NCBI GenBank assembly: GCA_963817525.1
Contig: CAWFOU010000007.1
Span: 1-64,000 of the forward strand
Length of the DNA stretch: 64,000 nt
DNA from: an uncultured archaeon
GTDB lineage: Archaea; Thermoproteota; Nitrososphaeria; Nitrososphaerales; Gagatemarchaeaceae
Direction: 5' to 3'
The position numbers were made by a program, and so were the translations under genes. Of the stretch, positions 1-41,706 are shown one piece after another. Each line of letters starts with the position of its first letter. Within the stretch, counting starts at the first letter, position 1. The notes beneath the pieces are model-generated. The model saw only the letters and a list, made by a program, of their open reading frames with translations. It ran no database searches and was not told where the DNA came from.

Positions 1-1263
1 CGTCCCTAGGAAGACCATGCCCTCTGATTGGCCGGAGCCGACCACCCAGGCGCCGCCCCATGCGGAGCCTGTGGAGCCCGTAGAGCCGCCGCCGTCGATG
101 GCGAGGCACTGGGCCGTCTGGCCGGACTGTCCCCAGTCGTTGTAGAGGGTTGTGTTGAGCTGAGTCGGAGACAGCGCCTTCCAGTTGACGACGATGTCGT
201 CGTTGTTGTTGACGAGCAGGCCTCCTGCCACCTCTGTAGGGGTGGTGTACCCGTTGGTAGAGCCGTTCTCACCAGGGTAGAAGGTGGTCGCGGTGGTCAT
301 GTTGGCGATCAACTGCTGGTCGAAGTATGGGTTCAGCGACGCCGTTGGGCTCCCTGGTTGGGGAGGAACGTCGTAGGTGATCCACCTCATAGAGACCGGG
401 TTGGTGTTCAGGTTCCATCCCGCGAAGAAGCCCCTGCCGTTGTCGGCGTCGGTTTCAGCGTCGTGGCCAGACACCAGTATTCCCAGTGTCGGGTTGATGA
501 CGATGTTCGCGGAGCCGATCCCGTTGTAGATGCTCTGCGGGTTGTTGCCTGCCACCATGTTGAGCCCGGTGAAGTCGCTGAAGTTGAGCTCCTCCTTGCC
601 GTTGAGGGCGTTGATTGCATAGACCCTGTTGTTCTCACCCTGGAACCACAGCGTCGGGCCGGACACGCCAGCGCCGAACGTCGCGGTGGAGAACCACTCA
701 TTGCCGTCGTGGGTGTGCAGCGGGACCGGGCCTGTTGCCTGGCCGGCGGTCTGGTTTGGCGCGAGGGGCGACTGGGCAGTCCAGAGCACGTCACCGTTGG
801 CTACGTTGAACGCTATTGTCTCGTCGAACGCCGTGGTCGCGAAGGCCGTGCCGTTGGCGATTATGACCGCCATGCCGACGCCAGCAGGGAAGAAGCCGGC
901 GATGGACAGCAGCGACGAAGGAACCGTTGGCAGAGGATAGATCCAGCTCAGTCCAAGGTACTGGACGTTGGAGCTGTTGATCTGGTTCTGCGGGTTGTAG
1001 TCCTGGTTGAAGGCGTTGCCGTTCGGGAACTCCCAGTTGGCCTCCGCCTGCGTCAGCGCTGGCTGGGCCGCGACTGGTGCCGCGGCCGAGGGCGCTGCCG
1101 TGTTGGTGGTGGCTGCTGCCGGGTTGATGAGAACGGACGCGCCTATGCCCGAGATGATGAATAGTAGGCTTAACGCGATTGCGCGAATTGATGTGTTGCT
1201 AAATGTTTTCTTCATACTTTTCCTAAATTCGTTCGTAAAATTATTCCGTAAAACCTTCGTCAT
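1..1263 (-). CDS. PQQ-dehydrogenase-like beta-propeller surface protein, paralog 1 (3' part runs off the window)
   Basis: Not in the ORF track because there is no stop in the window. Manual translation from ATG 1263 gives MTKVLRNNFTNEFRKSMKKTFSNTSIRAIA...WEFPNGNAFNQDYNPQNQINSSNVQYLGLSWIYP...LHTHDG...MVFLGT, collinear with the other paralogs. Confidence 0.9.
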   Translation of the reverse strand, partial: MTKVLRNNFTNEFRKSMKKTFSNTSIRAIALSLLFIISGIGASVLINPAAATTNTAAPSAAAPVAAQPALTQAEANWEFPNGNAFNQDYNPQNQINSSNVQYLGLSWIYPLPTVPSSLLSIAGFFPAGVGMAVIIANGTAFATTAFDETIAFNVANGDVLWTAQSPLAPNQTAGQATGPVPLHTHDGNEWFSTATFGAGVSGPTLWFQGENNRVYAINALNGKEELNFSDFTGLNMVAGNNPQSIYNGIGSANIVINPTLGILVSGHDAETDADNGRGFFAGWNLNTNPVSMRWITYDVPPQPGSPTASLNPYFDQQLIANMTTATTFYPGENGSTNGYTTPTEVAGGLLVNNNDDIVVNWKALSPTQLNTTLYNDWGQSGQTAQCLAIDGGGSTGSTGSAWGGAWVVGSGQSEGMVFLGT

Positions 1264-1534: not shown

Positions 1535-3991
1535 CTAGGAAGCGGGCTTCCTGCCGCGCATGGCAAGATAGCCCGTTGCTATGATGAAGATCACGGCGAC
1601 TACAGCTACTCCGTAGAGGGCTGTCGACGAGACTCCCGAGCTTGATGTGGATGTGACTGTCGTGATTGACGTTGCTGTCGAGGCTGAGACGCTTGTTGCG
1701 GTTGAGACGCTGACCGTAGTGCTGGTTGTCGTGCTGACGACCGTTGTGGTCGACACGCTGCTTGGCGGCGGGACTCCGCTCAAGGACAGGGCGACGATGT
1801 CTCCTGGCGTGGATCCGGGGCACGTCGAGATGGCCTCCAAGCTACACGTGCCGGCCGGGACGATGAGGTACTCCTGTCCGCTGGCCGAGGCTCCTATCGC
1901 GACGCCGACGTCCATCGGGGCGCCGAGGTAGAAGTCCCTGACGAGCTTGCCAGTCTGCGCGTTGACCATCAGGATGTCTCCCGAAGAGTCCGTCAGGTAG
2001 ACCAGGTTGCCGCTCATGTCAGTCTGGCCACGATATCCCTGATTGGGTATCGAGTAGCTCCAGACGACCTTTCCTGTGGCCCCGTTGACGTCCCATGTGG
2101 TGAAGTTGTCGTTGATGACACCGCAGCTGGGACAAGGAAGAGTCGTCTCGCCCCCCGCCGAGGTAAAGTACGTGGTTGAGTTCGCCGGAATATATCCGGT
2201 GTAGTATGGGACCAGGTGCGACGTTGCGTAGATCTGGTTCGTCGCCGGGTCGTATGCCTGCTCGTCCTCGAAGCCCGCTATCTCAGACGGCCAGAACAAG
2301 GCCGGAGGCTGTGGCCCTAGTATGCAGGCGGTCGTGAAGGCCGGCGCGCAGTTGGTCATGGCGGTTGGGAAGTCGAAGCTCATCTGAGTCGCGTTGAGAG
2401 GGTTCCACATGTAGCAGACGGGGCACCTGGCTGCGCCTGGCGTCACGACATTGCTCGGTGGGCTCCATGCCCAGATGAGGTTCCCGGTCACGGCGTTGAG
2501 CTCGTACATGTAGCCGTTCTTGCACGTCTTGAGGATCACCTCGGTGTTGACGCTGTTGATCGTCTCGTTGGCCATTCCTTCAGACCACGAGCAGTCGTAG
2601 TCCCAGAGGTCGTGTGCGTTCGCCTGGAAACCCCATATTATCTGGCCCGTGCTCGCGTTGAGGGCTAGTGTGGCGGCAGACCAGAGGTCTGGTCCCGGGG
2701 TGCAGGCGCTGGCATATGGGTCCTTGTTGTTGGTGTCCAAGAAGACCATCCCTGCGCTCTGTCCTGAGCCGACTAACCACTGGCCGCCCCATCCGGCGCC
2801 CGTAGCGCCGGTGGATAACCCGCCCGTTATGGCGGCACACTGGGCGCTCTGGTCATAATATCCCCAGTCGTTGTAGAGCGTGGCGTTGAGCTGTGTCGGT
2901 GATAGCGACTTCCAGTTGACGACGATGTCGTCATTGACGTTCATCAGCACGCCGCCAGCGACCTCGGTCGGGGTGGTATAGCCGTTGGTAGAGCCGTTCT
3001 CACCAGGGTAGAAGGTCTCTGCCCCTGTCATGTTGGCGATTAGCTGTGTATCGAAGTTCGGGTCCAGAGGGACGTTGCTCTGCGTCTGGGGAGGCGTGGT
3101 GTAGGTAATCCACTTCTCAGTGGGCGGGTTGGTGTTCAGGTTCCATCCGACGAAGAAGTTCCGGCCAGCGTTGATGGCGACTCCTTGGTCCATGCTGTTG
3201 ATGAGGACTCCGATCTGCTGGTTGATCAGGATGTTTGATGCACCAGTGGTGCTGTAGATGGCCTCAGGGTTGTTCCCGGCGACCATGTTCAGGCCGGTGT
3301 AGTCGGTGAAGTTTAGCTCCTCCTTCCCGGTTATGGCGCTGATGGCGTAGACCCTGTCGTTGCCAGCCTGGAACCAGAAAGTCGGACCTGAGACCCCGCT
3401 TGCGAAGCTGGCGGTGGTGAACTGCTCTGTGCCATCGTGGGCGTGGGTACCAATCGCCCCTGAGCCCGAGGGCAGGGTCTCGTTCGCAACCAATGGCGAC
3501 AGGTACGTCCAGAGGACGTCGCCGTTGGCCACGTTGAATGCGAGGACCTCGTCGAATTGAGTCATCGCAATTGCTGTGCCGTTGACTATCAGGGGGTCCA
3601 CATCTACGCCGGGGAAGAAGAAGCCGCCGAGGGTGCTAAGCGCAGAAGGCTCTGCGGGTAGCGGGTAGATCCAGCTAAGGCCCAGGTACTGGGCATTGGA
3701 GCTGTTGATCTGATTCTGGGGGTTGTAGTCTTGGCCGAACGCGTTGCCGTTCGGGAACTCCCAGTTGGCCTCCGCCTGGGTCACAGCAGGCTGGCTCGCG
3801 ACGGGTGCCGCGGCCGATGGCGCCGCAGTGTTGGGCGTTGCCGCCGCCGGGCTCAAAATGACCGAAGCTCCTATCCCTGATACGATGAATAGTAAGCTTA
3901 GTGCAATCGCACGGATTGATTTGTTGGTTAATGTTCTCTTCATACTTTGCCTAAATGCTTTCGTTAAATCGTTCGGTGATTCCTTCGTCAT
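1535..3991 (-). CDS. PQQ-dehydrogenase-like beta-propeller surface protein, paralog 2
   Basis: Quinoprotein motifs QINSSN..L.L.W, DTNNKDP, PGPDLWS..LALNASTG..WGFQ..HDLWDYD, KNGY; signal peptide; S/T linker plus TM plus MRGRKPAS tail. Start set at the conserved MTK. Confidence 0.85.
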   Translation of the reverse strand: MTKESPNDLTKAFRQSMKRTLTNKSIRAIALSLLFIVSGIGASVILSPAAATPNTAAPSAAAPVASQPAVTQAEANWEFPNGNAFGQDYNPQNQINSSNAQYLGLSWIYPLPAEPSALSTLGGFFFPGVDVDPLIVNGTAIAMTQFDEVLAFNVANGDVLWTYLSPLVANETLPSGSGAIGTHAHDGTEQFTTASFASGVSGPTFWFQAGNDRVYAISAITGKEELNFTDYTGLNMVAGNNPEAIYSTTGASNILINQQIGVLINSMDQGVAINAGRNFFVGWNLNTNPPTEKWITYTTPPQTQSNVPLDPNFDTQLIANMTGAETFYPGENGSTNGYTTPTEVAGGVLMNVNDDIVVNWKSLSPTQLNATLYNDWGYYDQSAQCAAITGGLSTGATGAGWGGQWLVGSGQSAGMVFLDTNNKDPYASACTPGPDLWSAATLALNASTGQIIWGFQANAHDLWDYDCSWSEGMANETINSVNTEVILKTCKNGYMYELNAVTGNLIWAWSPPSNVVTPGAARCPVCYMWNPLNATQMSFDFPTAMTNCAPAFTTACILGPQPPALFWPSEIAGFEDEQAYDPATNQIYATSHLVPYYTGYIPANSTTYFTSAGGETTLPCPSCGVINDNFTTWDVNGATGKVVWSYSIPNQGYRGQTDMSGNLVYLTDSSGDILMVNAQTGKLVRDFYLGAPMDVGVAIGASASGQEYLIVPAGTCSLEAISTCPGSTPGDIVALSLSGVPPPSSVSTTTVVSTTTSTTVSVSTATSVSASTATSITTVTSTSSSGVSSTALYGVAVVAVIFIIATGYLAMRGRKPAS

Positions 3992-4115: not shown

Positions 4116-4778
4116 TCAACTCGCTCGAGAGGTCGGTTGCGGGCGGCTCCTTCCCCTTACCAGCAACGCGAGCAAGATGATTACGACCACTGATGGGACT
4201 CCCACACCCGCATAGAAGAGGCCGGAGGAGACGCCACCGCTTTGAGTGGTCGTCGCCTGCGAGCTAGACACGGTGGACGTCGTCGAGCTGACGGACGTAA
4301 TTGTACCTGGGAGGCTCAACATTTCGACCGTGGTCGACTCCGTGAGCTGCTTTGAGAAGAAGCTGGTGCCGTTTGCGATTTGTAGGTCGATGGCGACTGT
4401 GGCCGTGAAGCTGCTCCCCGTAAAGTTGCTAGGAATCTCAAGGTAGATGGTCGAGAGGATGGCCTGCCCGGATGAGAGCTGGACCGGGAGGCCTATCGCG
4501 GAGCCCGTGCTGTAAGAGGGAGGGAGAGCGGGAGCAGTAAGCGTCTCGTTGAAGAGGCTCATGTTCCCGAGGGGAGGCGAGTCGGAGTTCACCACGAAGA
4601 CGGTGAACTCTTCGTTGCCCCCCGCGTAGTTGCCGTACCCAAGCGCGTTCAAGGTAGCCCAGACGTACTGCGACCCGCTCGGGGAGGTGGCCGCACGGGC
4701 GGGCACAACGGCCAAGAACGAGAGCGCAAAGAGGACAAACAGCCCTGCTACCAAGAGACTGGAAACGCGTTTCTCCAT
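4116..4778 (-). CDS. Secreted, TM-anchored protein with a single Ig-like domain, unknown function
   Basis: Signal peptide (MEKRVSSLLV...ARA), NYAGGNE...NSDSPPLGN motif shared with 5054-5746, S/T linker, C-terminal TM; TTATTA about 25 nt upstream. Confidence 0.8.
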   Translation of the reverse strand: MEKRVSSLLVAGLFVLFALSFLAVVPARAATSPSGSQYVWATLNALGYGNYAGGNEEFTVFVVNSDSPPLGNMSLFNETLTAPALPPSYSTGSAIGLPVQLSSGQAILSTIYLEIPSNFTGSSFTATVAIDLQIANGTSFFSKQLTESTTVEMLSLPGTITSVSSTTSTVSSSQATTTQSGGVSSGLFYAGVGVPSVVVIILLALLVRGRSRPQPTSRAS

Positions 4779-5053
4779 GATGGCCGAAAACCCAACGGAT
4801 GCTAATAAGCCATCGCTCATTTGATTGATTACAGAAGTTTGGCAAATTTGGTGCCGCCCAATCGTAGGTTGCGATCCTGCAGCTTTCAAGACTCACGCCG
4901 AAAACTCTAATCGATCGAATGAGCGCAAGCCCTATTTCAGAACGCCTTTGCGCCTTGTCGAGGCCCGACCCCGGTCAGGCTAACCGCAGAGCCATCAAGA
5001 GAGAGGTTTGTTTGAGGGCAGCCAGCGCAGCTGAGCCGTTTGCTTGGAATCGT

Positions 5054-5746
5054 CTAGATTGAAGCTGGTGTTCCCGGACTCGCCGAACCGGGACGCCTCA
5101 TGTCCCTCATGAGCAGGACGAGCAGAACGATGGCGATCAGAGACGGGACTCCGACCGCCGCGTAGAAAAGCGACGTTGGGAAGGTCCCGCTCTGGCTTGT
5201 GGTCTGCTGGGTTGAGATCGTCGAAGTCGTGCTAGTGACTTGGGCGACCGGAGGACCCAGCATGAAGATCTGCGCCGTCCCTGTCAGGATGGTGGGGATG
5301 GAAGCTGAGGCGTTTGCAATGTGAAAGTCGATGGTAACGCTCGCGGTGAAGTTGTTCTGACTAAAATCACTGGGGATTTGGAGGGTTATGTTCGAGAGCA
5401 ATGCCTGTCCTGGGGCGAGCTCGACTGGGAGGCCGCTCACAGAGGCGTTCTGAAACGGGGCGCGCAGTGTCTCGCTGACGAGGGTCACGTTCCCGAGGGG
5501 AGGCGAGTCGGAGTTCAAGAAAAAGACCGTTACCTGCTCGTTCCCGCCGGGATAGTTGGCCTGCGCTGGTGCGTTCACGGTAGCCCAGACAGGCGCGGCA
5601 GGGACGGCATAGGGAGGGGGTAGACAATGCACAGATGGCGGGGGGCAGCCCCCTTGGGCTGGAAGCGGGATGGCCTGGCTTGGGGGCACGGCGAGGAGGC
5701 AGGAAAGGACAAGGAGGGTGAGTACGCCCACCTTGAGCCCCGGCAT
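5054..5746 (-). CDS. Paralog of 4116-4778; secreted, TM-anchored protein
   Basis: Shares WATxNA..NYxGGNE..TVF..NSDSPPLGN..ETLxAP..GLPV..GQA; signal peptide and C-terminal TM; TTTATTA upstream. Confidence 0.8.
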   Translation of the reverse strand: MPGLKVGVLTLLVLSCLLAVPPSQAIPLPAQGGCPPPSVHCLPPPYAVPAAPVWATVNAPAQANYPGGNEQVTVFFLNSDSPPLGNVTLVSETLRAPFQNASVSGLPVELAPGQALLSNITLQIPSDFSQNNFTASVTIDFHIANASASIPTILTGTAQIFMLGPPVAQVTSTTSTISTQQTTSQSGTFPTSLFYAAVGVPSLIAIVLLVLLMRDMRRPGSASPGTPASI

Positions 5747-6056
5747 GGAAGGAGAAAGAATCACCTGGCTCTAATAAACAATAGCTTGGACAGCCTAAAG
5801 CGCAATCGAGTCGCTCTGCTCGAAGCACCTCAGCTGCCGGAACTGGCTAGTGATCGCCGAATTGGGAAGAGGAGCTGGAACGCAGAAGGGGCGCCCCCTC
5901 ACTGCGCGAAGCGGGCACGGGAGGACGGCCCCGGCCGAGGGGCGGCTCGAACCAAAGAGCAAGACGACGGGAGGGCGCATCCAGTCTTCCGGATGCCTTT
6001 TTCATATAGCGCCAGTTTCAAGAGGGAGACCCAAACGCTCGAGTACTACCCCTGAC

Positions 6057-6120
6057 CGCCCGGGCCCAGGGGGCGCCAAAGGAGGCGTGACGACGAAGGC
6101 GGGCGTCCCAGGGCCGGGCG
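6057..6120. ncRNA. Candidate structured RNA hairpin, class B copy 1
   Basis: CGCCCGG..GGGGCGCC-loop-GGCGTCCC..CCGGGCG; loop contains TGACGACGAAGGCG; homologous to 39049-39118. Confidence 0.45.
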
Positions 6121-6140
6121 AGACCTTTGTGCTGAACGGG

Positions 6141-6173
6141 AAGAAAATTGGGATGCCCCCTTTGTAAGGGGGC
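6141..6173 (-). terminator. GC hairpin plus U-tract downstream of paralog 3
   Basis: GCCCCCTT-TGT-AAGGGGGC stem, then TTTTCTT on the minus strand. Confidence 0.6.
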
Positions 6174-6195
6174 GCTGGCTGGTTGTCTCCTAAAA

Positions 6196-8742
6196 TTAGG
6201 AGGCGGGCTTCCTGCCACGCATGGCAAGATAGCCCGAGACGATGATGAAGATCACAGCCACTGCCGCTACTCCGTACAGAGCTGTGGAGCTGACTCCCGT
6301 GCTGGATGTTGAAGTCACTGTTGTGGTCGCTGTTCCACCTGGGGCCGACGCGGTCGAGGTGACCGTTGTCGTGATCACCTGGCCTCCAGGTCCTGTGACT
6401 GTAGTCGTGATTACTGCTGTTGATGCGGAGACTGATGTGGTGGTCGAGACTGAGGTCGTTGTGCTGGTTACCGTTGTCGTCGAGGTCGTTGTTGACGCTA
6501 CGGACGCTGCGGACAGGGATAGGGCCACCAAGTCTCCCGGCGAATTTTGACAGGTGGCGAAGCTATAGCCGCATCCACCTACCGGTACGAGGATGTACTC
6601 CTGCCCGTTGACCGCTGCTCCGATTGACACGCCAACGTCCATCGGGGCACCGACGTAGTAGTCTCTGAGTTGTTGGCCTGTCTGGGCGTTCCACATCAAG
6701 ATGTCGCCCGTTCCCTCTACATTGTAGACGACGTTACCGCTGACATCGGTCTGACCGCGGTATCCGTCGACGGCCGAGACTTGCTGGTGCCACTGAAGTG
6801 CGCCGCTATTGGCGTTGATGGCCCAGAGTGTGGCGTTGTCGGTGAGTGTGCCACAGCTCGGACACGTCACAGCGCCTTCCCCTGTGGAGGAGAAGTAGGT
6901 GGACGCGTTGAGCCCGAAGTAGCCCATGTACGAGGGAACGACGTGCGAAGTCGCATAGATCATGTTGGTCGCTGGGTCGAACGCCTGCTCGTCCTCGAAG
7001 CCAGCATTCTCTGATGGCCACTGGAGGAACGGAGGCTGAAGGCCCCTCTCGCACGCGATGGTGTAAGCTGGTGCGCAGTTGGTCAGCGCGGATGGGAAGT
7101 CGATGCCGGTCTGGGACGCGTTCAGTGGGTTCATGGGGAAGCAGACCGGGCACCTAGTAGGTCCCGGGTTCTCAGTGCCTGCGGGTGGGTCCCACGCCCA
7201 GATGAGGTTGCCTGTCAGGGCGTTGATCTCGAAGAGGTATCCGTCCTTGCACGTCTTCAGGATGACCTCGGTGTTGACGCCAGACAGGGTGACGTTGGCG
7301 AGTGCTTGGTACCAGGAGCAGTCGTAGTCCCAGACGTCGTGAGTGGTGGTCTGGAAGCCCCAGACTATCTGCCCGGTGGTGATGTTGAGTCCGAGGACGG
7401 ACGCAGACCAGAGGTCAGGTCCTGGGTTGCAAGGCCCGGTGAACGGGTCCTTGTTGTTCGTCCCTAGGAAGACCATGCCTGCGGTCTGTCCCGAGCCGAC
7501 CACCCACGCGCCGCCCCATGCGGAGCCTGTGGAGCCCGTAGAGCCGCCGCCGTCGATGGCGAGGCACTGGGCCGTCTGGTCAGACTGTCCCCAGTCGTTG
7601 TACAGGGTGTTGTTGAGCTGAGTCGGAGACAGCGCCTTCCAGTTGACGACGAGGTCGTTGTTGACGTTCGTGAGAACGCCGCCTTGGATCTCAGTCGGAG
7701 TGGTGTACCCGTTGGTGGTGCCGTTCTCACCAGGGTAGAAGGTCGTCGCGGTGGTCATGTTGGCGATGAGCTGCTGGTCGAAATATGGATTGAGGGCAGC
7801 AGATGGGCTCCCTGGTTGGGGAGGAACGTCAAACGTGACCCACTTCATGGTGACCGGGTTGGTGTTCAGGTTCCATCCCGCGAAGAAACCTCTTCCGTTG
7901 TCGGCGTCGATTTCAGCGTCGTGGCCAGAGACTAGGATGCCTAGCTGCTGGTTGATGACGATGTTCGAGGCGCCGATCCCGTTGTAGATGCTCTGCGGGT
8001 TGTTGCCCGGCACCATGCTGAGGCCGGTAAAGTCGGAGAAGTTCAGCTCCTCCTTGCCGGTTAGCGCGTTGATAGCGTAGACCCTGTTGTTCTGACCCTG
8101 GATCCACAGCGTCGAGCCGGACACGCCTGAGCCGAACGTCGCGGTGGAGAACCATTCGTTGCCGTCGTGGTCGTGCAGCGGAACTGGGCCTGTTGACTCG
8201 CCGGCGGTCTGGTTAGGCGCGAGCGGCGAGAGGAAGGTCCACAGCACGTCTCCGTTGGCGACGTTGAAGGCGATGACTTCGTCGTACTGCGTTATCCCGA
8301 AGGCAGTGCCGTTGACTATCTGGACATCCATGCCTATGCCGTTACCATTGAAGAACCCCGCCGTCAGCGAAATCAGCGCAGTTGGAACGCCGGGGAGTGG
8401 ATAAATCCAGCTCAGTTGGAGATTCTGGACGTTGGAACTGTTGATTTGGTTCTGAGGGTTGTAGTCCTGGTTGAAGGAGTTGCCGTTCGGGAACTCCCAG
8501 TTGGCCTCCGCCTGCGTCAGCGCTGGCTGAGCATCGACGGGGGCCGCTGCTGATGGAGCCGCGGCCGAGGGCGCTGCCGCGCTGGGAGTGGCTGCAGCTG
8601 GGTTAATCAGAACGGACGCGCCTATCCCTGATACGATGAATAGTAAGCTTAGTGCGATTGCGCGAATCGATGTGTTGCTAAATGTTTTCTTAATACTTTT
8701 CGTAAATCCATTCGTGAGACTCTTCCGCAAAACCTTCGTCAT
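6196..8742 (-). CDS. PQQ-dehydrogenase-like beta-propeller surface protein, paralog 3
   Basis: 848 aa; GTNNKDPF, HDVWDYD and KDGY motifs; signal peptide, T-rich linker, TM anchor. Confidence 0.88.
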   Translation of the reverse strand: MTKVLRKSLTNGFTKSIKKTFSNTSIRAIALSLLFIVSGIGASVLINPAAATPSAAAPSAAAPSAAAPVDAQPALTQAEANWEFPNGNSFNQDYNPQNQINSSNVQNLQLSWIYPLPGVPTALISLTAGFFNGNGIGMDVQIVNGTAFGITQYDEVIAFNVANGDVLWTFLSPLAPNQTAGESTGPVPLHDHDGNEWFSTATFGSGVSGSTLWIQGQNNRVYAINALTGKEELNFSDFTGLSMVPGNNPQSIYNGIGASNIVINQQLGILVSGHDAEIDADNGRGFFAGWNLNTNPVTMKWVTFDVPPQPGSPSAALNPYFDQQLIANMTTATTFYPGENGTTNGYTTPTEIQGGVLTNVNNDLVVNWKALSPTQLNNTLYNDWGQSDQTAQCLAIDGGGSTGSTGSAWGGAWVVGSGQTAGMVFLGTNNKDPFTGPCNPGPDLWSASVLGLNITTGQIVWGFQTTTHDVWDYDCSWYQALANVTLSGVNTEVILKTCKDGYLFEINALTGNLIWAWDPPAGTENPGPTRCPVCFPMNPLNASQTGIDFPSALTNCAPAYTIACERGLQPPFLQWPSENAGFEDEQAFDPATNMIYATSHVVPSYMGYFGLNASTYFSSTGEGAVTCPSCGTLTDNATLWAINANSGALQWHQQVSAVDGYRGQTDVSGNVVYNVEGTGDILMWNAQTGQQLRDYYVGAPMDVGVSIGAAVNGQEYILVPVGGCGYSFATCQNSPGDLVALSLSAASVASTTTSTTTVTSTTTSVSTTTSVSASTAVITTTVTGPGGQVITTTVTSTASAPGGTATTTVTSTSSTGVSSTALYGVAAVAVIFIIVSGYLAMRGRKPAS

Positions 8743-8880
8743 ACGCCGACAATACCGTAATGTCAGTATTTACGCGTTCTTTCAGGTGTATTTTTAACAC
8801 GGTGGCGTTAGCAGATGACGAATCCGCTTACGTCCGCGGAGCTTCCCATCGACCTTGAGGAGATGATCCGCTACGGATCG

Positions 8881-9010
8881 CAGTTACAAATTATCAGAAG
8901 CCCCGCATCTCACATTTGTCAGCATGATCGTTCCACGAGAGGAACCTGCCGACCCCGAGCCCGGACGTGGTCTTAGGGCCATGACCTCTGGCAGGTCAGG
9001 CAAAAAATAG
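8881..9010. repeat. Conserved intergenic element class A, copy 2 (holds an intact 28-codon + strand ORF, 8924-9010)
   Basis: ACAAATTATCA..ATTTGTCAGCATG; ACCTGCC/GGCAGGT inverted repeat; ORF MIVPREEPADPEPGRGLRAMTSGRSGKK. Confidence 0.85.
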
Positions 9011-9030
9011 GAGATGCCCCGTTCAGGGGC
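9002..9030 (-). terminator. GC hairpin plus U-tract downstream of paralog 4
   Basis: GCCCC-GTTCA-GGGGC stem, then TTTTTT on the minus strand. Confidence 0.6.
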
Positions 9031-9046
9031 CCGGTTGGTTGTGCCT

Positions 9047-11473
9047 CTAGGAGGCGGGCTTCCTGCCGCGCATAGCAAGATAGCCCGAGACGATGATGAA
9101 GATCACGGCGACTGCCGCGACTCCATAGAGCGCTGTTGAGTTGGACGATGATGTGACCGTTGTCGTGGAGACTGAGATGGAGACCGAGAGGGCCGCCGTG
9201 GAGGTCGTAGTGACAGTCGTCGTTACGCCGGTCGACGCAACTCCGCTCTGCAGTGAAAGTGCGAGGACGTCACCAGGCGTGGTGCCCGGACACGTTGTGA
9301 CGGCCTCTAGGTCGCACGTCCCTACCGACAATAGGATGTATTCCTGGCCCCCGACGGACGCGCCGAACGAGACGCCCTCGTCCATTGGTGCGCCGATGTA
9401 GTAGTCGCGGAGGAGGTCGCCATTGGTCGCGTTGAGCATCAGCATGTCGCCCGATGACTCCGTCAGGTAGACGACGCCGCCACTCGCGACGGTCTTGCCT
9501 CGGTATCCCTCGCTTGGTTGGGTGTAGTGCCACACTATCTGGCCCGTGGCGCCGTTGATGTCCCATGTCGTGGAATTGTCGTCGATGAACCCACAGGTGG
9601 GGCATGGCGCTATTCCGAGGCCAGCAGACGAGAAGTAGTTGGACGAGTTCAGAAGTACCTGGGCTTCGTAGTATGGAACGATGTGTGTCGTTGCGTAGAT
9701 CTGGTTGTTCGCTGGGTCGTATGACTGCTCGCCCTCGAAGCCGGCTATTGCAGACGGCCACCCTAGGTACGGAGGATTCGTGCCTAGTATGCAGGCACTC
9801 GTGAAGGTTGGCGCGCAGTTGGTCATGGCGGTTGGCCAGTCGAAGCTCATCTGAGTCGCGTTGAGAGGGTTCCACATGTAGCAGACGGGGCACCTGGCTG
9901 CGCCTGGTGTCACGACCTGGCTAGGCGGGCTCCAGGCCCAGATTAGGTTCCCTGTCACGGCGTTGATCTCGTAGAGGTAGCCGTTCTTGCAGGTCTTGAG
10001 GATCACCTCGGTGTTGACGCCGCTGATGGTCTCGTTGGCTAGTGCCTGGTACCACGAGCAGTCCCAGTCCCAGAGGTCGTGCGCGTTCGCCTGGAAGGCC
10101 CACACCACCTGGCCTGTGGTCAGGTTGAGTGCGAGAGTAGCGGCGGACCAGAGGTCTGGTCCTGGGGTGCACGAGCTAGCGTAAGGATCCTTGTTGTTGG
10201 TGCCCACGAAGGCCAGGCCTGCAGTCTGACCCGAGCCGACCACCCAGGCGCCGCCCCACCCGGAGCCCGTGCTCCCTGTGGAGCCGCCCCCGTCGGTGGC
10301 GAGGCACTGTGCGCTCTGATCGGACTGTCCCCAATCGTTGTACAGCGTTGCGTTGAGCTGTGTCGGTGACAGGCTCTTCCAGTTAACGACGATGTCGTTG
10401 TTGTTGTTGACAAGCAGGCCTCCTGCCACCTCTGTCGGGGTGGTGTACCCGTTAGCAGAGCCGTTCTCACCAGGATAGAAGGTCGATGCCGCGGTCATGT
10501 TGGCGATCAACTGCTGGTCGAAGTAGGGGTTCAGCGCCGCCGTTGGGCTACCAGGCTCTGGAGGAACGTCGTAGGTGATCCACTTCATGGTGACCGGGTT
10601 GGTGTTCAGGTTCCATCCTGCGAAGAAGCCCCTGCCGTTGTCGGCGTCTCCCTCTGCGTCATGGCCCGAGACCAGTACTCCCAGGGTCGGGTTGATGACG
10701 ATGTTGGCCGCGCCAATTCCGTTGTAGATGCTCTGCGGGTTGTTGCCTGCCACCATGTTGAGTCCGGTGAAGTCGGAGAAGTTAAGCTCCTGCTTGCCGG
10801 TGACGGCGTTGACGGCGTAGACCCTGTTGTTCTGCCCCTGGAACCAGAAGGTCGGACCCACGACGCCCGAGAGGAACGTCGCGGTCGTGAACCATACGTT
10901 TCCGTCGTGGGAGTGGAGCGGGACTGGGCCTGTGGCCTCACCTGCCGTCTGGTTGGGGGCGAGCGGGGACATGTATGTCCAGAGGATGTCACCGTTGGCC
11001 ACATTAAAGGCGATGATCTCGTCGTACTCTGTGATAGCGAAGGCAGTGCCGTTGACGACGATTATCGACGTTTGTACGCCCGCGCCCGCGCCATAAAGGC
11101 CGCTAAGAGTGCTGAGCGATGACGGCGTACTCGGCAACGGATAGATCCAGCTCAAGCCCAGATACTGGACGTCGGAGCTGTTGATCTGGCTTTGCGGGTT
11201 GTAGTCCTGGTTGAAGGCGTTGCCGTTCGGGAACTCCCAGTTGGCCTCCGCCTGCGTCAGCGCCGGCGCCGCTGCGGCGGGAGCCGCAGCTACGGCCGAG
11301 GGCGCCGCCGTGTTGGGCGTGGCTGCTGCGGGGTTGACGAGGACAGAAGCACCTATCCCCGAGACGATGAAGAGCAGGCTTAGCGCGATTGCTCGGATCG
11401 ATGTGTTGCTTAATGCTTTCTTAATGCTTTTCCCAAATCCGTTCGTAAGACTATAACGTAAAACCTTCGTCAT
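9047..11473 (-). CDS. PQQ-dehydrogenase-like beta-propeller surface protein, paralog 4
   Basis: 808 aa; HDLWDWD and KNGY motifs; same signal peptide and anchor. Confidence 0.88.
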   Translation of the reverse strand: MTKVLRYSLTNGFGKSIKKALSNTSIRAIALSLLFIVSGIGASVLVNPAAATPNTAAPSAVAAAPAAAAPALTQAEANWEFPNGNAFNQDYNPQSQINSSDVQYLGLSWIYPLPSTPSSLSTLSGLYGAGAGVQTSIIVVNGTAFAITEYDEIIAFNVANGDILWTYMSPLAPNQTAGEATGPVPLHSHDGNVWFTTATFLSGVVGPTFWFQGQNNRVYAVNAVTGKQELNFSDFTGLNMVAGNNPQSIYNGIGAANIVINPTLGVLVSGHDAEGDADNGRGFFAGWNLNTNPVTMKWITYDVPPEPGSPTAALNPYFDQQLIANMTAASTFYPGENGSANGYTTPTEVAGGLLVNNNNDIVVNWKSLSPTQLNATLYNDWGQSDQSAQCLATDGGGSTGSTGSGWGGAWVVGSGQTAGLAFVGTNNKDPYASSCTPGPDLWSAATLALNLTTGQVVWAFQANAHDLWDWDCSWYQALANETISGVNTEVILKTCKNGYLYEINAVTGNLIWAWSPPSQVVTPGAARCPVCYMWNPLNATQMSFDWPTAMTNCAPTFTSACILGTNPPYLGWPSAIAGFEGEQSYDPANNQIYATTHIVPYYEAQVLLNSSNYFSSAGLGIAPCPTCGFIDDNSTTWDINGATGQIVWHYTQPSEGYRGKTVASGGVVYLTESSGDMLMLNATNGDLLRDYYIGAPMDEGVSFGASVGGQEYILLSVGTCDLEAVTTCPGTTPGDVLALSLQSGVASTGVTTTVTTTSTAALSVSISVSTTTVTSSSNSTALYGVAAVAVIFIIVSGYLAMRGRKPAS

Positions 11474-11564: not shown

Positions 11565-11690
11565 CAGTCACAAATTATCAAAACGCCGCATATTCCGTTT
11601 GTCAGCATGGACGGTCCACGCCAGGGACCTGCCGACCCGGAGTCTGGATAGGTCGGAGGGTCAAGACCTCCGGTAGGTCAGGCAAAAAAT
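11565..11690. repeat. Conserved intergenic element class A, copy 3
   Basis: GTCACAAATTATCAAAACGCCGCAT..TTTGTCAGCATG..GACCTGCCG/CGGTAGGTC..CAAAAAAT. Confidence 0.85.
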
Positions 11691-11714
11691 GGGAGATGCC
11701 CCCGGTCAGGGGGC
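11684..11714 (-). terminator. GC hairpin plus U-tract downstream of paralog 5
   Basis: GCCCCC-GGTCA-GGGGGC stem, then TTTTTT on the minus strand. Confidence 0.6.
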
Positions 11715-11737
11715 CTGGTTTGTTGTGTCTCCTAAAA

Positions 11738-14270
11738 TTAGGAGGCGGGCTTCCTGCCACGCATGGCAAGATAGCCCGTAGCTAGGATGAAGATCACGGC
11801 GACAACAGCTACTGCATACAGTGCTGTGTTGCTGCTCGATGTTGTGGATGTGGACGTGACCGTGGTAATTGACCCGGTCTGGGTGACTGTGGTGGTCTGC
11901 CCGTTGGCTCCGGTCGTTACCGTGACGGTAGCGCCTGAGGCTGTGGCAGTTGTCGTGGATGTGGCAGTTGTCGTGGATGTGGCAGTTGTCGTGGATGTTG
12001 CTGTCACTGTGGCGGTGCTCGTGCTAGAAGGCGGGAGGTTCTCCAGCGTCAGGGCCACGATGTCTCCCGGCGTTGTGCCTGGACACGTCGCAACGGCCTC
12101 GATGCTGCACGTCCCCACGGGTGTGAGGAGGTACTCCTGCCCGCCGACCGATGCCCCGATGGATACGCCCACGTCCATTGGCGCGCCGATGTAGTAGTCT
12201 CTGATGAGTGCACCTGTCTGGGCGTTCACCATGGTGATGTCGCCCGAGGAGAGCACGTTGTAGACGACGTTACCGCTTTCGTCGGTCTGGCCGCGGTATC
12301 CCTGGAGGGATGCCACCGGGTAGTGCCAGTTGACGGCTCCGGTCTGTGCGTTGATTGACCAGAGCGTGGCGTTGTTGATGATGGTGCCGCAAGTGGGGCA
12401 TGCTGTGGTCGCTTCCCCTGTTGAGGAGAAGTAGGTGGACGCGTTGAGCCCAAAGTAGCCCATGTAGTAGGGCACGAGGTGCGATGTGGCGTAGATTGTG
12501 CCTGTGGTTGGGTTGAATGCCTGCTCGTCCTCGAAGCCGGCCAGTTCAGATGGCCACTGGAGGAACGGAGGCTGTGGGCCTCTTAGGCACGCGATGGTGT
12601 ATGCTGGTGCGCAGTTAGTGAGCGCGGATGGGAAGTCGATGCCGGTCTGGGATGCGTTCATCGGGTTCATGGGGAAGCAGACCGGGCACCTGGTCGATCC
12701 GGGTGCCTCTGAGCCTGCAGGTGGATCCCACGCCCAGATCAAGTTGCCTGTGAGGGCGTTGATCTCGAAGAGGTATCCGTCCTTGCACGTCTTCAGGATG
12801 ACTGGAGTGTTCGCGCCCGAGATGGTCACGTTGGCCAGTGCCTGGTACCACGAGCAGTCGTAGTCCCAGACGTCGTGAGCCGTTGTCTGGAATGCCCATA
12901 CCCACGCGCCCGTCGTTACGTTCAGGGCGATCACTGAGGCTGACCAGAGATTAGGTCCTGGGTTGCAAGGCCCGGTGAACGGGTCCTTGTTGTTGGTGCC
13001 GAGGAAGACCATGCCCTGGGTGTTCCCGGAGCCCATTACCCAAGCCCCGCCCCATGCGGAGCCTGTGGAGCCCGTAGAGCCGCCGCCGTCGATGGCGAGG
13101 CACTGCGAGGTCTGGTCGGACTGTCCCCAGTCGTTGTAGAGTGTGGTGTTGAGCTGAGTCGGAGACAGCGCCTTCCAGTTGACCACTAAGTCGTTGTTGT
13201 TGTTGACGAGTAGTCCTCCTGCCACCTCTGCGGGGGTGGTGTACCCGTTGGTAGAGCCGTCCTCACCAGGGTAGAAGGTCGTGGCGCTCTGAGAGATGTT
13301 GGCGATTAGCTGCTGGTCGAAGTATGGGTTCAGCGACGCCGTTGGGCTCCCTGGTTGGGGAGGAACGTCGTAGGTGATCCACTTCATGGGTGACCGGGTT
13401 GGTGTTCAGGTTCCATCCTGCGAAGAAGCCTCTTCCGTTGTCGGCGTCAATTTCAGCGTCGTGGCCAGACACCAGGATGCCCAGTGTCGGGTTGATGACG
13501 ATGTTCGAGGCGCCGATACCGTTGTAGATGCTCTGCGGGTTGTTGCCTGCCACCATGTTGAGGCCGGTGAAGTCGGAGAAGTTGAGTTCGTACTTGCCGG
13601 TCAGCGCGTTGAGCGCGTAGACACGGTTGTTCTCACCCTGGTACCACAGCGTCGGGCCAGAGACTCCGGCGCCGAAAGTCGCTGTAGTGAACCACTCGTT
13701 GCCGTCGTGGTGGTGCAGCGGGACTGGGCCTGTGGATTGTCCTGCGGTCTGGTTGACCGCCAGTGGCGTGAGGGAAGTCCAGAGCACGTCGCCATTGGCG
13801 ACGTTGAAGGCGATGGTCTCGTCGAACTGCGTGATCACGAATGCCGTGCCATTGACGATGATGATGCTCATGTCTGTTGACCCGCCGAACGTCTCGCCGC
13901 CCGGAGCGAGCGCCGATAGCGACGTCGGGACGGTGGGCATCGGATAGATCCACGCCAGTCCGAGATACTGGACGTTGGAGCTGTTGATCTGGGTCTGCGG
14001 GTTGTAGTCCTGGTCGAAGGCGTTGCCGTTCGGGAACTCCCAGTTTGCCTGCGCCTGAGTCAGCGCTGGCGCTGCCGCGACCGGTGCCGCGGCCGAGGGC
14101 GCTGCTGTGTTCGGCGTGGCTGCTGCTGGGTTGATGAGGACGGATGCGCCGATGCCTGAGACGATGAATAGAAGGCTGAGTGCGATTGCGCGGATTGATG
14201 TGTTGCTTAATGTTTTCTTAATACTTTTCCTAAATGCTTTCGTTATATCCTTCGTTAATTCCTTCGTCAT
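11738..14270 (-). CDS. PQQ-dehydrogenase-like surface protein, paralog 5 (one-base insertion near 13389, probably a sequencing error)
   Basis: ORFs 13263-14279 and 11738-13387 join into a full paralog if one G is removed from CATGGGTGA; paralogs 3 and 4 have CATGGTGA. Confidence 0.85.
11942..11999. repeat. 18-bp tandem repeat encoding the TTTATS linker
   Basis: TGTGGCAGTTGTCGTGGA three times inside the S/T linker of paralog 5. Confidence 0.85.
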
Positions 14271-28179: not shown

Positions 28180-28280
28180 GCGCTAACCCTTCGTCATCAA
28201 AGGAAGCGTTGCCGGGGAGGCGGGTGGAGAAGCCGCCCGCTCTCCTCTCGGCAGGGCGGAGAACTGGTAGCCAACGCTTA
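28180..28280 (+). ncRNA. Candidate structured small RNA or leader
   Basis: ATTATTAT at ~28151; CCTTCGTCATCAAAGG; AAGCGTTG/CAACGCTT outer stem enclosing a GC hairpin. Confidence 0.3.
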
Positions 28281-39048: not shown

Positions 39049-39118
39049 TGGCTGCCCGGGCCTCGGGGTCACCCGACGATTTGATGACGAAGGCGGGGTG
39101 CCCCGGCCCGGGCGGCCA
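39049..39118. ncRNA. Candidate structured RNA hairpin, class B copy 2
   Basis: TGGCTGCCCGGGCC/GGCCCGGGCGGCCA outer stem, GGGG.CACCC/GGGTGCCCC inner stem, loop TTGATGACGAAGGC. Confidence 0.5.
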
Positions 39119-39130
39119 TTTTTGAAAAGC

Positions 39131-39160
39131 GAAAAAGGGGAGATGCCCCCGGTGGGGGGC
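39131..39160 (-). terminator. GC hairpin plus U-tract downstream of paralog 6
   Basis: GCCCCC-GGTG-GGGGGC stem, then CTTTTTC on the minus strand. Confidence 0.6.
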
Positions 39161-39177
39161 CTGTTTTGGTTGTGCCT

Positions 39178-41706
39178 CTAGGAGGCGGGCTTCCTGCCAC
39201 GCATGGCAAGATAGCCCGTAGCGATGATGAAGATCACGGCGACTATGGCTACTGCGTATAGCGCTGTGTTGCTGCTTGATGATGTGGATGTAGAGGTGAC
39301 CGTGGTAGTTGCACCGCTCATGGTGACCGTGGTTGTCTGCCCGTTGGCTCCGGTCGTTACCGTGACGGTAGCGCCTGAGGCCGTGGAAGTGGTTGTGGAT
39401 ACTGCCGTCGTTGTCGACACTGATGTAGTCGTGGATGTTGCTGTCACCGTGGTGGTGCTAGTGCTCGCGGTGGAAGGCGGGAGGTTCTGCAGGGTCAGGG
39501 CCACGATGTCTCCTGGCGTTGTGCCTGGACATGTCGAGACGGCCTCGAAGCTGCAAGTCCCTACTGGTACGAGGAGGTACTCCTGCCCGCCGACGGACGC
39601 TCCGATCGTCACGCCTTGGTCCATTGGCGCGCCGATGTAGTAGTCTCTGATCAGCGCGCCTGTCGCGGCGTTGACCATAGTGATGTCGCCCGAGGAAAGG
39701 ACGTTGTAGACGACGTTACCGCTGACGTCGGTCTGTCCACGGTATCCCTGCAAGGACCCTACGGGGTAGTGCCAGTTGAGGACCCCGGTCTGTGCGTTGA
39801 TGGACCACAGCGTGGCGTTGTTGTAGAGGACTCCGCAGCTCGGACACGGCACACCTCCTTCGCCTGTCGAGGAGAAGTAGGTGGACGCGTTGAGCCCGAA
39901 GTAGCCCATGTAGCTGGGTACCACGTGCGAAGTCGGGAAGATGGTGTTGCTCCCTGCGTCGAACGCCTGCTCGTCCTCGAAGCCGGCCAGTTCAGATGGC
40001 CACTGGAGGAACGGAGGCTGCGAGCCCCTGTCACAAGCGATGGTGTATGCCGGGTAGCAGTTGGTGAGTGCGGACGGGAAGTCGATGCCGGTCTGGGACG
40101 CGTTCATCGGGTTCATCGGGTAGCAGACTGGACATCTGCTAGGCCCGGAGGTCTCGATGTTAGCGGGCGGATCCCACGCCCAGATCAAGTTGCCTGTGAG
40201 GGCATTGATCTCGAAGAGGTATCCGTCCTTGCACGTCTTCAGGATGACCTCGGTGTTGACGCCCGAGACGGTCTCGTTGGCTAGGGCTTGCCACCAGGAG
40301 CAGTCGTAGTCCCAGACGTCGTGTGTGGTGGTCTGGAAGCCCCAGACTATCTGGCCTGTGGTGATGTTGAGTCCGAGGACTGAAGCTGACCAGAGGTCAG
40401 GTCCTGGGTCGCAAGGCCCAGTGAACGGGTCCTTGTTGTTCGTCCCTAGGAAGACCATTCCCTCTGATTGGCCGGAGCCCACTATCCAGGCGCCGCCCCA
40501 AGCGGAGCCTGTGGAGCCCGTGGAGCCGCCGCCGTCGATGGCGAGGCACTGGGCCGTCTGGTCGGACTGTCCCCAGTCGTTGTAGAGAGTGGTGTTGAGC
40601 TGAGTTGCCGACAGCGCCTTCCAGTTGACGACGATGTCGTCGTTGACGTTCATCAGCGTTCCTCCTGCCACCTCCGTCGGAGTCGTGTACCCGTTGGTAG
40701 AGCCGTTCTCACCAGGGTAGAAGGTCGTCGCGGTGGTCATGTTGGCGATGAGCTGCTGGTCGAAGTACGGGTTGAGAGAAGCGGTCGGGCTGCCCGGCTG
40801 AGGTGGGACGTCGTACGTGATCCACTTCATGGTCACCGGGTTGGTGTTCAGGTTCCACCCTGCGAAGAAGCCTCTTCCGTTGTCGGCGTCGATCTCAGCG
40901 TCGTGGCCAGAGACTAGGATGCCTAGCTGCTGGTTGATGACGATGTTCGAAGCGCCGATCCCGTTGTAGATGCTCTGCGGGTTGTTGCCTGCCACCATGT
41001 TGAGCCCGGTGAAGTCGCTGAAGTTCAGCTCATGGTCACCGTTCAAGGCGTTGATTGCATAGACCCTGTTGTTCTCACCCTGGTACCACAGCGTCGGGCC
41101 GGACACGCCGGAGCCGAACGTCGCTGTGGAGAACCACTCGTTGCCGTCGTGGTCGTGCAGCGGGACCGGGCCTGTTGCCTGACCCGAGGTCTGGTTGACC
41201 GCGAGGGGCGACTGGTCGGTCCAGAGCACGTCGCCGTTGGCGACGTTGAACGCTATGGTCTCGTCGAAGTTTGTGGTGGCGAACGCCGTGCCGTTGACGA
41301 CGATTATCGCCATGCCTATCCCGGGACCGCCGATGCCGCCCGAGAGGGGCGTCAGGGAGGTCGGGACGTTAGGCAGCGGGTAGAGCCAGGCCAGTCCGAG
41401 ATACTGGACGTTGGAGCTGTTGATCTGTGTCTGCGGGTTGTAGTCCTGGTTGAAGGCGTTGCCGTTCGGGAACTCCCAGTTGGCCTCCGCCTGCGTCAGC
41501 GCTGGCTGGGCTGCGACGGGTGCCGCGGCCGAGGGCGCTGCAGTGTTGGGCGTAGCTGCGGCTGGATTGAGGAGCACTGACGCTCCGATTCCTGAGACGA
41601 TGAAAAGAAGACTTAGTGCGATTGCGCGGATTGATGTGTTGCTTAATGTTTTCTTAATACTTTTCGTAAATTCGTTCGTGTTTCGTTTCGATAATACGTT
41701 AGTCAT
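39178..41706 (-). CDS. PQQ-dehydrogenase-like beta-propeller surface protein, paralog 6
   Basis: Same motifs and anchor as the others; nucleotide sequence in register with paralog 1 (positions 1-840 versus 40441-41280). Confidence 0.88.
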   Translation of the reverse strand: MTNVLSKRNTNEFTKSIKKTLSNTSIRAIALSLLFIVSGIGASVLLNPAAATPNTAAPSAAAPVAAQPALTQAEANWEFPNGNAFNQDYNPQTQINSSNVQYLGLAWLYPLPNVPTSLTPLSGGIGGPGIGMAIIVVNGTAFATTNFDETIAFNVANGDVLWTDQSPLAVNQTSGQATGPVPLHDHDGNEWFSTATFGSGVSGPTLWYQGENNRVYAINALNGDHELNFSDFTGLNMVAGNNPQSIYNGIGASNIVINQQLGILVSGHDAEIDADNGRGFFAGWNLNTNPVTMKWITYDVPPQPGSPTASLNPYFDQQLIANMTTATTFYPGENGSTNGYTTPTEVAGGTLMNVNDDIVVNWKALSATQLNTTLYNDWGQSDQTAQCLAIDGGGSTGSTGSAWGGAWIVGSGQSEGMVFLGTNNKDPFTGPCDPGPDLWSASVLGLNITTGQIVWGFQTTTHDVWDYDCSWWQALANETVSGVNTEVILKTCKDGYLFEINALTGNLIWAWDPPANIETSGPSRCPVCYPMNPMNASQTGIDFPSALTNCYPAYTIACDRGSQPPFLQWPSELAGFEDEQAFDAGSNTIFPTSHVVPSYMGYFGLNASTYFSSTGEGGVPCPSCGVLYNNATLWSINAQTGVLNWHYPVGSLQGYRGQTDVSGNVVYNVLSSGDITMVNAATGALIRDYYIGAPMDQGVTIGASVGGQEYLLVPVGTCSFEAVSTCPGTTPGDIVALTLQNLPPSTASTSTTTVTATSTTTSVSTTTAVSTTTSTASGATVTVTTGANGQTTTVTMSGATTTVTSTSTSSSSNTALYAVAIVAVIFIIATGYLAMRGRKPAS

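Follow-up and report, generated by a model that had tools for sequence, protein, structure and literature searches.

The 64,000 nucleotides (nt) analysed here (the window: positions 1 to 64,000 of contig CAWFOU010000007.1, assembly GCA_963817525.1) come from an uncultured archaeon of the Gagatemarchaeaceae, whose 2.82-Mb metagenome-assembled genome (MAG; G000 in the following) comprises 15 contigs, with 95% completeness and 8.75% contamination. The minus strand of the window carries six paralogous genes of a common family, each encoding ~810-850 amino acids (aa), and the 3' flanks of two of them contain a long hairpin whose loop is complementary to start regions within this family. The genes and elements concerned are listed below.

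1-1263, minus strand: paralog 1, running off the contig start; ATGACGAAGG start at 1254..1263
1535-3991, minus strand: paralog 2; ATGACGAAGG start at 3982..3991
6057..6120, minus strand: long hairpin copy 1, 73 nt after the paralog 3 stop; sense loop GCCUUCGUCGUCACG
6088..6101, minus strand: loop motif of copy 1; the plus (+) strand reads TGACGACGAAGGCG
6138..6176, minus strand: short GC hairpin in the copy 1 flank, GCCCCC-UUACAAA-GGGGGC followed by AUCCCAAUUUUCUUCCC, between the stop and the long hairpin
6196..8742, minus strand: paralog 3, 848 aa, pyrroloquinoline quinone (PQQ) beta-propeller (Pfam PF01011, E 2.9e-31)
8733..8772, minus strand: promoter and start of paralog 3, with TAAATA at 8767-8772 and the ATGACGAAGG start at 8733-8742
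9047-11473, minus strand: paralog 4; ATGACGAAGG start at 11464..11473
11738-14270, minus strand: paralog 5; ATGACGAAGG start at 14261..14270, frameshift near 13263-13387
39049..39118, minus strand: long hairpin copy 2, 59 nt after the paralog 6 stop; sense loop CCUUCGUCAUCAAAUCG
39082..39095, minus strand: loop motif of copy 2; the + strand reads TGATGACGAAGGCG
39124..39160, minus strand: short GC hairpin in the copy 2 flank, followed by CCCCUUUUUCGCUUUUC and preceding the long hairpin
39178..41706, minus strand: paralog 6, 842 aa from the ATG at 41706; starts ATGACTAACG

By their beta-propeller domain (Pfam scan: PF01011 with E 2.9e-31 and 1.5e-27, plus PF13360) the paralogs are assigned to a family of secreted, membrane-anchored PQQ-dependent dehydrogenases. 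The product of paralog 3 consists of a signal peptide, the propeller, a serine/threonine (S/T)-rich stalk and a C-terminal membrane anchor with the ending ...AMRGRKPAS. The nearest named relatives of these proteins (65-71% identity) are found in the MAGs 'Thaumarchaeota archaeon isolate AcS1-13' and 'archaeon isolate MAS3.bin69', the first of which is placed in Ca. Gagatemarchaeum in a published study; that study describes genomes with up to 8 PQQ-dependent dehydrogenases, whose genes frequently stand side by side in twos or threes, and considers such multi-copy enzymes to be probably important for heterotrophy in non-ammonia-oxidising Thaumarchaeota (PMC10640624). The window thus probably derives from a heterotrophic thaumarchaeon of a Group I.1c-like kind. 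Both ends of the paralogs are strongly homogenised, the first 60 nt and the last codons being nearly identical. Paralog 5 is divided into open reading frames (ORFs) of 335/338 aa and 549 aa, which overlap near 13263-13387 as a result of either a frameshift or an assembly error.

Start regions and predicted leaderless messages

Paralogs 1-5 share a common start, as a preliminary description of this DNA had claimed: all five begin ATGACGAAGG. This word occurs 8 times in the window (0.09 expected), namely at the five minus-strand paralog starts (1263, 3991, 8742, 11473 and 14270), in the 39049 loop and at two orphan sites (28197 and 36999). A TAAATA-like box lies 31-33 nt ahead of each paralog start (TAAATA itself at 31 nt). 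In the genome as a whole, the spacing between a TATA-like hexamer and the first ATG of a long ORF is most often 28-33 nt (382 cases). Because the TATA-to-ATG spacing sits at the genome-wide mode, the paralog mRNAs are predicted to be leaderless, or to carry a leader of at most a few bases, which agrees with the earlier suggestion. Within G000 the start word and a TATA box are combined only at paralog starts; the same configuration was found in 8 of the 23 genus genomes (G000 included) and in 1 of 58 other genomes of the family, and a reversed control gave 0 matches. The 5' ends of the paralog mRNAs are unstructured, with folding energies (-4.7 to -6.2 kcal/mol) no better than those of shuffled sequences.

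Both orphan start words (36990-36999 and 28188-28201, minus strand) are without a TATA box. One of them, GCATGACGAAGGTA, follows a short GC hairpin, forms the start of an ORF of 7 codons and has a second occurrence on contig C14; the other, TTTGATGACGAAGGG, agrees over 14 nt with the 39049 loop as read on the + strand. In the paralogs, the first 60 nt (e.g. 8683-8742, 11414-11473 and 14211-14270, minus strand) are built of five 12-nt units in tandem, N-ACGAAGG-NATT, coding for TKxx repeats within a long signal-peptide n-region; in some relatives there are three exact ACGAAGG copies. The tandem arrangement could therefore offer several targets to the 3' loop, or form a protein-binding array.

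Two homologous hairpins in the 3' flanks

The homologous hairpins that had been proposed at 6057-6120 and 39049-39118 are both present, and their flanks are homologous too, with the same order of last codons, stop, short GC hairpin, T-run, 15-25 nt and long hairpin. The reported compensatory change from G-C to A-U (CGCC/GGCG versus CACC/GGTG) can be read directly in the two copies, and the conserved loop word TGAYGACGAAGGCG occurs exactly twice in the window (+ strand 6088-6101 and 39082-39095) against 0.07 expected. A covariance model matches the first copy at 6050-6128 (82.6 bits) and the second at 39046-39122 (84.6 bits). The 39049 copy is much more stable than its shuffles (z -4.3 sense and -4.75 antisense), none of 200 shuffles being as good. 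The short GC hairpin and T-run ahead of each long hairpin look like a terminator. The long hairpin itself does not resemble one, since its stem is followed on the sense strand neither by a T-run nor by otherwise T-rich sequence.

In 6 of 12 copies the hairpin is followed, 3-8 nt past its 3' foot, by a box R-AGTRCTC (6035-6049 and 39025-39041 in minus-strand sense, the C10 and C7:548 copies, L109 and L112), and the conserved element may therefore extend past the stem. The + strand ORFs that cross the hairpins (5850-6167, 38439-39125 and 38960-39181) differ in frame and ends between the copies and were treated as non-coding. Rfam gave 0 matches at gathering score in the 64-kb window; at E<=1 there were chance-level matches to mir-1915 (19.8/95 bits) and SorX (14.2/46.6 bits) at 39049, and nothing at 6057.

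The element in the source genome, congeners and metagenomes

The covariance model, built from five copies and run against G000, gave six good matches, each on the strand of a paralog and 59-73 nt after its stop (window 6050-6128 and 39046-39122, C7:548250-548332, C1:445057-445141, C10:16553-16629 and C14:12031-12107), so that 6 of the 12 paralog 3' flanks of this genome have the hairpin. The C14 copy is identical to the 39049 locus, and the C10 copy is 90% alike, with similar flanks. These belong to near-duplicates of the whole paralog 6 locus, hairpin included (C14 9447-12113, 100%; C10 13969-16634, 90%), the gene on C14 being frameshifted; given the 8.75% contamination, they may be co-assembled strain variants and not extra loci.

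Across 100 relatives the same model found nothing convincing, with one weak match (G022, E 0.065), because the stems are lineage-specific. A search with the paralog proteins recovered the family in 7 of 23 genus genomes (G000 included) and at 33 metagenome loci. Five full hairpins were seen in the metagenomes (L098, two in L100, L109 and L112), a further copy in L110 being cut by the contig end; all five keep CGCCCGGGCCUCGGG-type stems and a loop ..UCGUCAUGCUUYU. The L100 hairpins lie between tandem paralogs, so that the earlier statement that hairpins follow terminal paralogs does not hold as a rule.

The congener G008 has two copies, in 2 of its 6 flanks. Their stems (GGCUC..GGUCUCCGGC / GCCGGAGACC..GAGCC) are unrelated to the other stems yet fully paired, their loops read GUUUCGUCAUGCAA, keeping TTCGTCATGC, and their folds have z-scores of -3.9 and -5.45. 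Two further congeners, G012 and G014 (~48% protein identity to paralog 3, surrounding non-coding sequence unrelated), lack the long hairpin; the reverse complement of the start stands instead directly after the stop, as TAA-TTTT-TCTTCGTCAT in 6 of 8 G012 flanks and as TAA-TTTTTC-CCTTCGTC in 7 of 9 G014 flanks. The pattern TTTTCN{0,2}CTTCGTC has 7 matches in the whole of G014, all of them at those paralog flanks.

Other kinds of 3' flank also occur. Paralogs lacking the long hairpin share another conserved spacer after a terminator-like hairpin, GCCTGACCTRCCGGAGGTC ... GGGTCGGCAGGT ... CATGCTRACAAA (11590-11737, 8900-9046, 1390-1534 and the G000 C8 flank after 146829), which is imperfectly self-complementary. 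In a third type (G000 C1:245183, G022, L102 and L107) the last codons of the gene (GCAGGAAGCCCGCCTCCTAG) recur ~66-72 nt beyond the real stop, ahead of a T5 run.

Complementarity between loops and starts

The shared core of the complementarity is formed by GCAUGACGA at the start (-2..+7) and UCGUCAUGC in the loop. Contiguous complementarity of 7-12 nt to positions -2..+10 is conserved across four lineages, i.e. a 3' complementarity of the kind known from the Staphylococcus aureus icaR mRNA (discussed below) is present. The 39049 loop is a perfect complement of +1..+10 at five paralog starts, extending to the 12 nt noted earlier at the paralog 5 start at 14270 (TGATGACGAAGG). The 6057 loop is complementary to GACGAAGG (+3..+10) at the start of its own gene and, across a 2/3-nt bulge, to GGCGU (-5..-1), which reproduces the gapped match described before (GGCGT...GACGAAGG at 8742); GGCGU is common to the paralog 3 loop and to the unusual -5..-1 context of that gene. 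In most minimum-energy folds the CGUCAU core is unpaired. Shuffled 5' ends form predicted duplexes of -11.5 +/- 2.7 kcal/mol, whereas those with ATGACGAAGG-type ends have ~-17 to -26, in a calculation that ignores the hairpin's own structure and yields energies for comparison only. For paralog-6-type ends the values lie between -8 and -15 kcal/mol and so do not surpass the shuffled ones, and the prediction that paralog 6 (start ATGACTAACG at 41706) would escape is upheld on these figures.

Loops and starts change together in part. Where the start context is GC-AUG (G000, G008 and the metagenome genes) the loop continues ..CAU-GC, and where it is AU-AUG (G012) the 3' motif reads ..CAU-AU, with similarity reaching as far as -10 in one gene. 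C7:550848 is the only gene starting AUGCCGA and its loop the only one reading UCGGCAU; the 5' end of this gene is also the best predicted duplex partner of its hairpin (-23.7 kcal/mol). Alignments of own start with own flank scored 22-28 in four G012 genes, and 0 of 100 shuffles scored as high. The suggested check of whether loops and starts co-vary has a divided outcome, the -2/-1 bases (GC/AT) and the pair AUGCCGA/UCGGCAU being tracked and the paralog 6 start and the +8 position not. Taken together, the alignments show a loop/start complementarity that is family-specific and conserved, and that partly tracks the start. As a general property of leaderless genes, 5'/3' complementarity was considered and set aside, matches of at least 8 nt occurring in 4 of 198 TATA-anchored genes versus 21 of 980 permuted pairs.

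The same observations could be read without RNA pairing. One regulator or RNA-binding protein might recognise (GC)ATGACGAAGG at the start and its inverted copy in the 3' flank, where the hairpin would present or insulate a second site for titration, autoregulation or a roadblock. The core GCATGACGA is kept in all lineages while the outer bases diverge and would mismatch in an RNA duplex, the ACGAAGG-like units recur every ~12 nt over the first 60 nt like an array of binding sites, and the lineage co-variation at -2/-1 (GC versus AT) is also expected with a single protein. Directly upstream of paralog 6, moreover, lies a gene of AsnC type with two helix-turn-helix (HTH) regions. A protein site leaves unexplained, however, the gene-specific ATGCCGA/UCGGCAU match, the replacement of whole stems with pairing kept and the G-U strand bias described below, and we regard it as unlikely. 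The gene in question (41959-42900, minus strand) encodes a 313-aa protein (AsnC-type/HTH_24) and is a candidate regulator of the family, judged by its domains and position.

In another account, which we also hold to be rather improbable, the hairpin is a structural 3' element (a back-up terminator or a decay barrier) and its loop an inverted relic of the 5' end kept by gene conversion. The paralogs are homogenised at both ends and half of them manage without the element. Two features are consistent with copying of DNA: the 6057 loop has GGCGT in common with the promoter-proximal DNA of its own gene, and the similarity of the G012 flank to the start extends to -10, a position that probably precedes the transcription start. 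A relic would not be expected, however, to persist at ~48% protein identity amid unrelated non-coding surroundings, or to occupy the loops of hairpins with unrelated stems. Chance is negligible as a source of the motif (by a rough estimate, ~0.003 of 200-nt flanks would hold a 9-mer complementary to a 12-nt start window), and the missing sense-strand T-run speaks against a terminator.

Strand preference of the stems

The model-fitted alignment of 9 sense copies contains 132 Watson-Crick cells and 16 that pair on neither strand. Of the remainder, 27 pair on the sense strand only (G-U there, A-C on the + strand) versus 5 on the antisense strand only (13 versus 4 by column), a bias which the fitting to a sense-strand model may somewhat favour. 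The sense fold is better by 5-10 kcal/mol for the C1_445, L109, L112 and both G008 copies; apart from the 6057, 39049 and C10 copies, for which the + strand fold is better, the rest have about equal energies on both strands, and per-copy energies are inconsistent overall. The preference for a + strand fold put forward in the preliminary description therefore applies to the stability of the two window copies and has no support at the family level, because the G-U bias favours the strand of the paralogs. For the same reason (27 cells to 5) the suggestion that the + strand loop acts as a decoy is not borne out. The main argument for a selected structure is the complete replacement of the stem in G008 around the same loop. 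Complementarity, conservation, partial co-variation, the hairpin and the G-U strand bias were all computed directly from these data.

A + strand (antisense) RNA, acting as a small RNA, as a decoy of the start region or as a C/D-box-like L7Ae site, would fit the better + strand fold of the 6057, 39049 and C10 copies, the UGAUGA in the 39049 and C10 loops and the T5 run that follows the hairpin on this strand in the 39049 and C10 copies only. Against this, the + strand has no conserved TATA box at a suitable distance before the hairpin, Rfam gave no match at gathering score, and the family-level G-U bias points to the other strand. The C-box proposed earlier fares no better: UGAUGA is present in 2 of 12 distinct copies (39049, repeated on C14, and C10) and missing in the other 10, which have GCAUGACGA or variants of it, and there is no CUGA box in 39040-39125. 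We consider a functional + strand RNA very improbable.

Short inverted repeats of invertible DNA are known from fim-type switches. Each affected gene here is likewise a surface-protein gene bracketed by a 9-19-nt inverted repeat, ATGACGAAGG ... CCTTCGTCAT (in G012 19 nt with gaps and mismatches), and inversion by a site-specific recombinase, i.e. phase variation of a surface enzyme, would suit products that are surface proteins in multi-copy arrays and matches that include bases which are probably untranscribed. Unlike in a fim-type switch, however, the repeat lies in the loop of a G-U-paired hairpin, a strand bias unexpected for a DNA site; no recombinase was found among the 37 window ORFs scanned (the sole mobile-element gene, of TnpB/OrfB_IS605 type, is ~19 kb away), and the G000 assembly has one orientation, with no inverted promoter-flank junction and with all ATGACGAAGGCG sites lacking a TATA box. 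Such inversion is therefore very unlikely. An integron attC-like or diversity-generating retroelement (DGR)-type target hairpin was also rejected: it is the loop and not the stem boxes that is conserved here, each gene has its own promoter, and neither an integrase nor a reverse transcriptase occurs among the scanned window ORFs.

A possible anti-start element

The reading that we favour, with a probability of roughly 40%, is that the hairpin is a family-specific 3'-flank RNA element, an "anti-start", acting in cis or in trans by base pairing with leaderless paralog mRNAs at their 5' end. The element would be transcribed in the direction of the gene, either in a long 3'-untranslated region (UTR) isoform or by read-through past the first terminator-like site. 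Its RNA would fold into a hairpin of 60-85 nt with the anti-start UCGUCAUGC in the apical loop (CCUUCGUCAU in both window copies), as the complement of (GC)AUGACGAAGG, with which the leaderless paralog mRNAs begin. In cis (5'-3' closure) or in trans (through a stable fragment of the 3' end), pairing would cover the 5'-terminal AUG, which is the sole initiation signal of a leaderless mRNA. Translation would then be reduced and/or decay altered, expression would be tuned within the paralog family, and genes with diverged starts, such as paralog 6, would escape. The 'escape' of paralog 6 fits action in trans, and the matches of C7:550848 and paralog 3 fit action in cis.

Pairing is the preferred explanation because a 9-12-nt complement of the 5' terminus is kept in the 3' flank across lineages with otherwise unrelated non-coding sequence, and because the loop is usually apical in a stem that tolerates G-U on the sense strand and faces an unstructured 5' end. 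Transcription of the hairpin, the pairing and its effect we infer from these features. Of the RNA-based regulation first proposed for the two hairpins, the conserved and, across lineages, paralog-specific complementarity stands, and the + strand decoy and the C-box/L7Ae variants do not.

Several findings weigh against an anti-start element. The main difficulty is the position of the short GC hairpin and a T4-T5 run between the stop and the long hairpin in G000-like copies; most transcripts may therefore stop earlier, and only read-through or long isoforms would carry the hairpin. Contigs of two peat metatranscriptomes (X7 and X11) match conserved coding parts only and leave 5996-6132 uncovered. 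The element is missing from many flanks: from the other 6 of 12 in G000, from 12 of the 17 metagenome flanks that extend 150 nt or more downstream, from 4 of 6 in G008, and altogether from G006 (0/2 flanks), G020 (0/6) and G022. The paralog-6-type start, found in three places, is unmatched by its own loop, and loops vary opposite +8 where starts do not. Complementarity to -2/-1 (to -10 in G012) requires a short 5' leader or suggests copying at the DNA level. As to structure, the 6057 copy is no more stable than its shuffles (z +1.19 sense and -0.52 antisense), the antisense (+) fold is better by 5-8 kcal/mol for the 6057, 39049 and C10 copies, and double-sided covariation is weak among the G000-like copies, its 2 pairs being equalled or exceeded in 116 of 500 shuffles.

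Of 12 sequencing runs identified, 2 were RNA runs, and four runs in all were compared with the window as assembled (Logan) contigs. The peat metatranscriptome contigs cover 7229-8050 and 8462-8598 at ~90% likeness, with a word depth >1000 in one run, and family relatives therefore occur in RNA libraries. One X11 contig ends with adapter just past the stop (place 6192); as the end of just one fragment, it was disregarded. Metagenome contig ends at gene borders were not used as transcript ends either, assembly breaks at the paralog repeats explaining them equally well.

Comparison with known systems

Bacterial small RNAs derived from 3' UTRs have a stable 3' hairpin with an exposed seed and act in trans. 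The hairpin described here would be similar in form, and such action would suit paralog 6, whose hairpin matches other paralogs and not itself; unlike in those RNAs, the putative seed, known here from sequence, would aim at the 5'-terminal start codon of its own paralogs. In the icaR mRNA of S. aureus a 3' motif has reportedly been shown by experiment to pair with the Shine-Dalgarno sequence in the 5' UTR and to block initiation. Here, too, a 3' motif is complementary to the translation-initiation region of its own mRNA and could block initiation, although the putative target is not a Shine-Dalgarno sequence in a bacterial 5' UTR but the 5'-terminal AUG of leaderless archaeal mRNAs. In contrast to the experimentally established icaR pairing, the motif is a loop beyond a terminator-like site, shared among paralogs and recognised by sequence analysis alone. 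The icaR report is concerned with 5'-UTR/3'-UTR base pairing (PMC3868564).

For haloarchaea, a functional interaction of 5' and 3' UTRs in translational control has been described (Brenneis and Soppa 2009, PMC2636863, as far as the accessible part goes). The present proposal is similar in that an archaeal 3' end would act with the 5' end on translation; in that part of the haloarchaeal study no base-pairing element is described and the transcripts have 5' UTRs (PMC2636863), whereas the genes considered here have an explicit complementary motif, are predicted to be leaderless and belong to a different phylum. A literature search of limited scope found no description of an archaeal 3' element complementary to a leaderless start.

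Other features of the window

4116-4889 and 5054-5764, minus strand: two paralogous small S/T-rich membrane-anchored proteins between the paralog arrays, without a Pfam match
37302-38534: NHL-repeat propeller protein, after the paralog 6 hairpin
60240-61319, minus strand: TnpB/OrfB_IS605-type gene (PF01385, PF07282)
61850-61931: weak covariance-model match to a GC-rich hairpin (E 0.94) near the TnpB gene, probably unrelated

Meaning for leaderless genes and for the family

Leaderless mRNAs are common in archaea, and have no 5' UTR that could hold a riboswitch, a small RNA target or an anti-Shine-Dalgarno sequence; judging by promoter spacing, they appear to be common in G000 too. To our knowledge, the regulation of their translation is largely unknown, and a simple answer to the problem of leaderless control would, if true, be offered by a conserved 3' element directed at the AUG of the 5' terminus. 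If the RNA reading is right, the known control by 5'/3' pairing would have been adapted to leaderless messages and would be common to a paralog family; if the conserved sequence is instead a DNA or protein site, it still marks an undescribed family-specific control signal. It is more doubtful whether the 3' stem-loop and the 5'-terminal AUG region together form the first 'anti-start' riboregulator for leaderless mRNAs, operating in a cross-regulatory network of paralogs, an idea that is suggested because most paralogs share their 5' end while the paralog 6 type has mutated away from it. In heterotrophic soil Thaumarchaeota such a network, if true, would determine which PQQ dehydrogenase, out of about a dozen extracellular ones, is translated.

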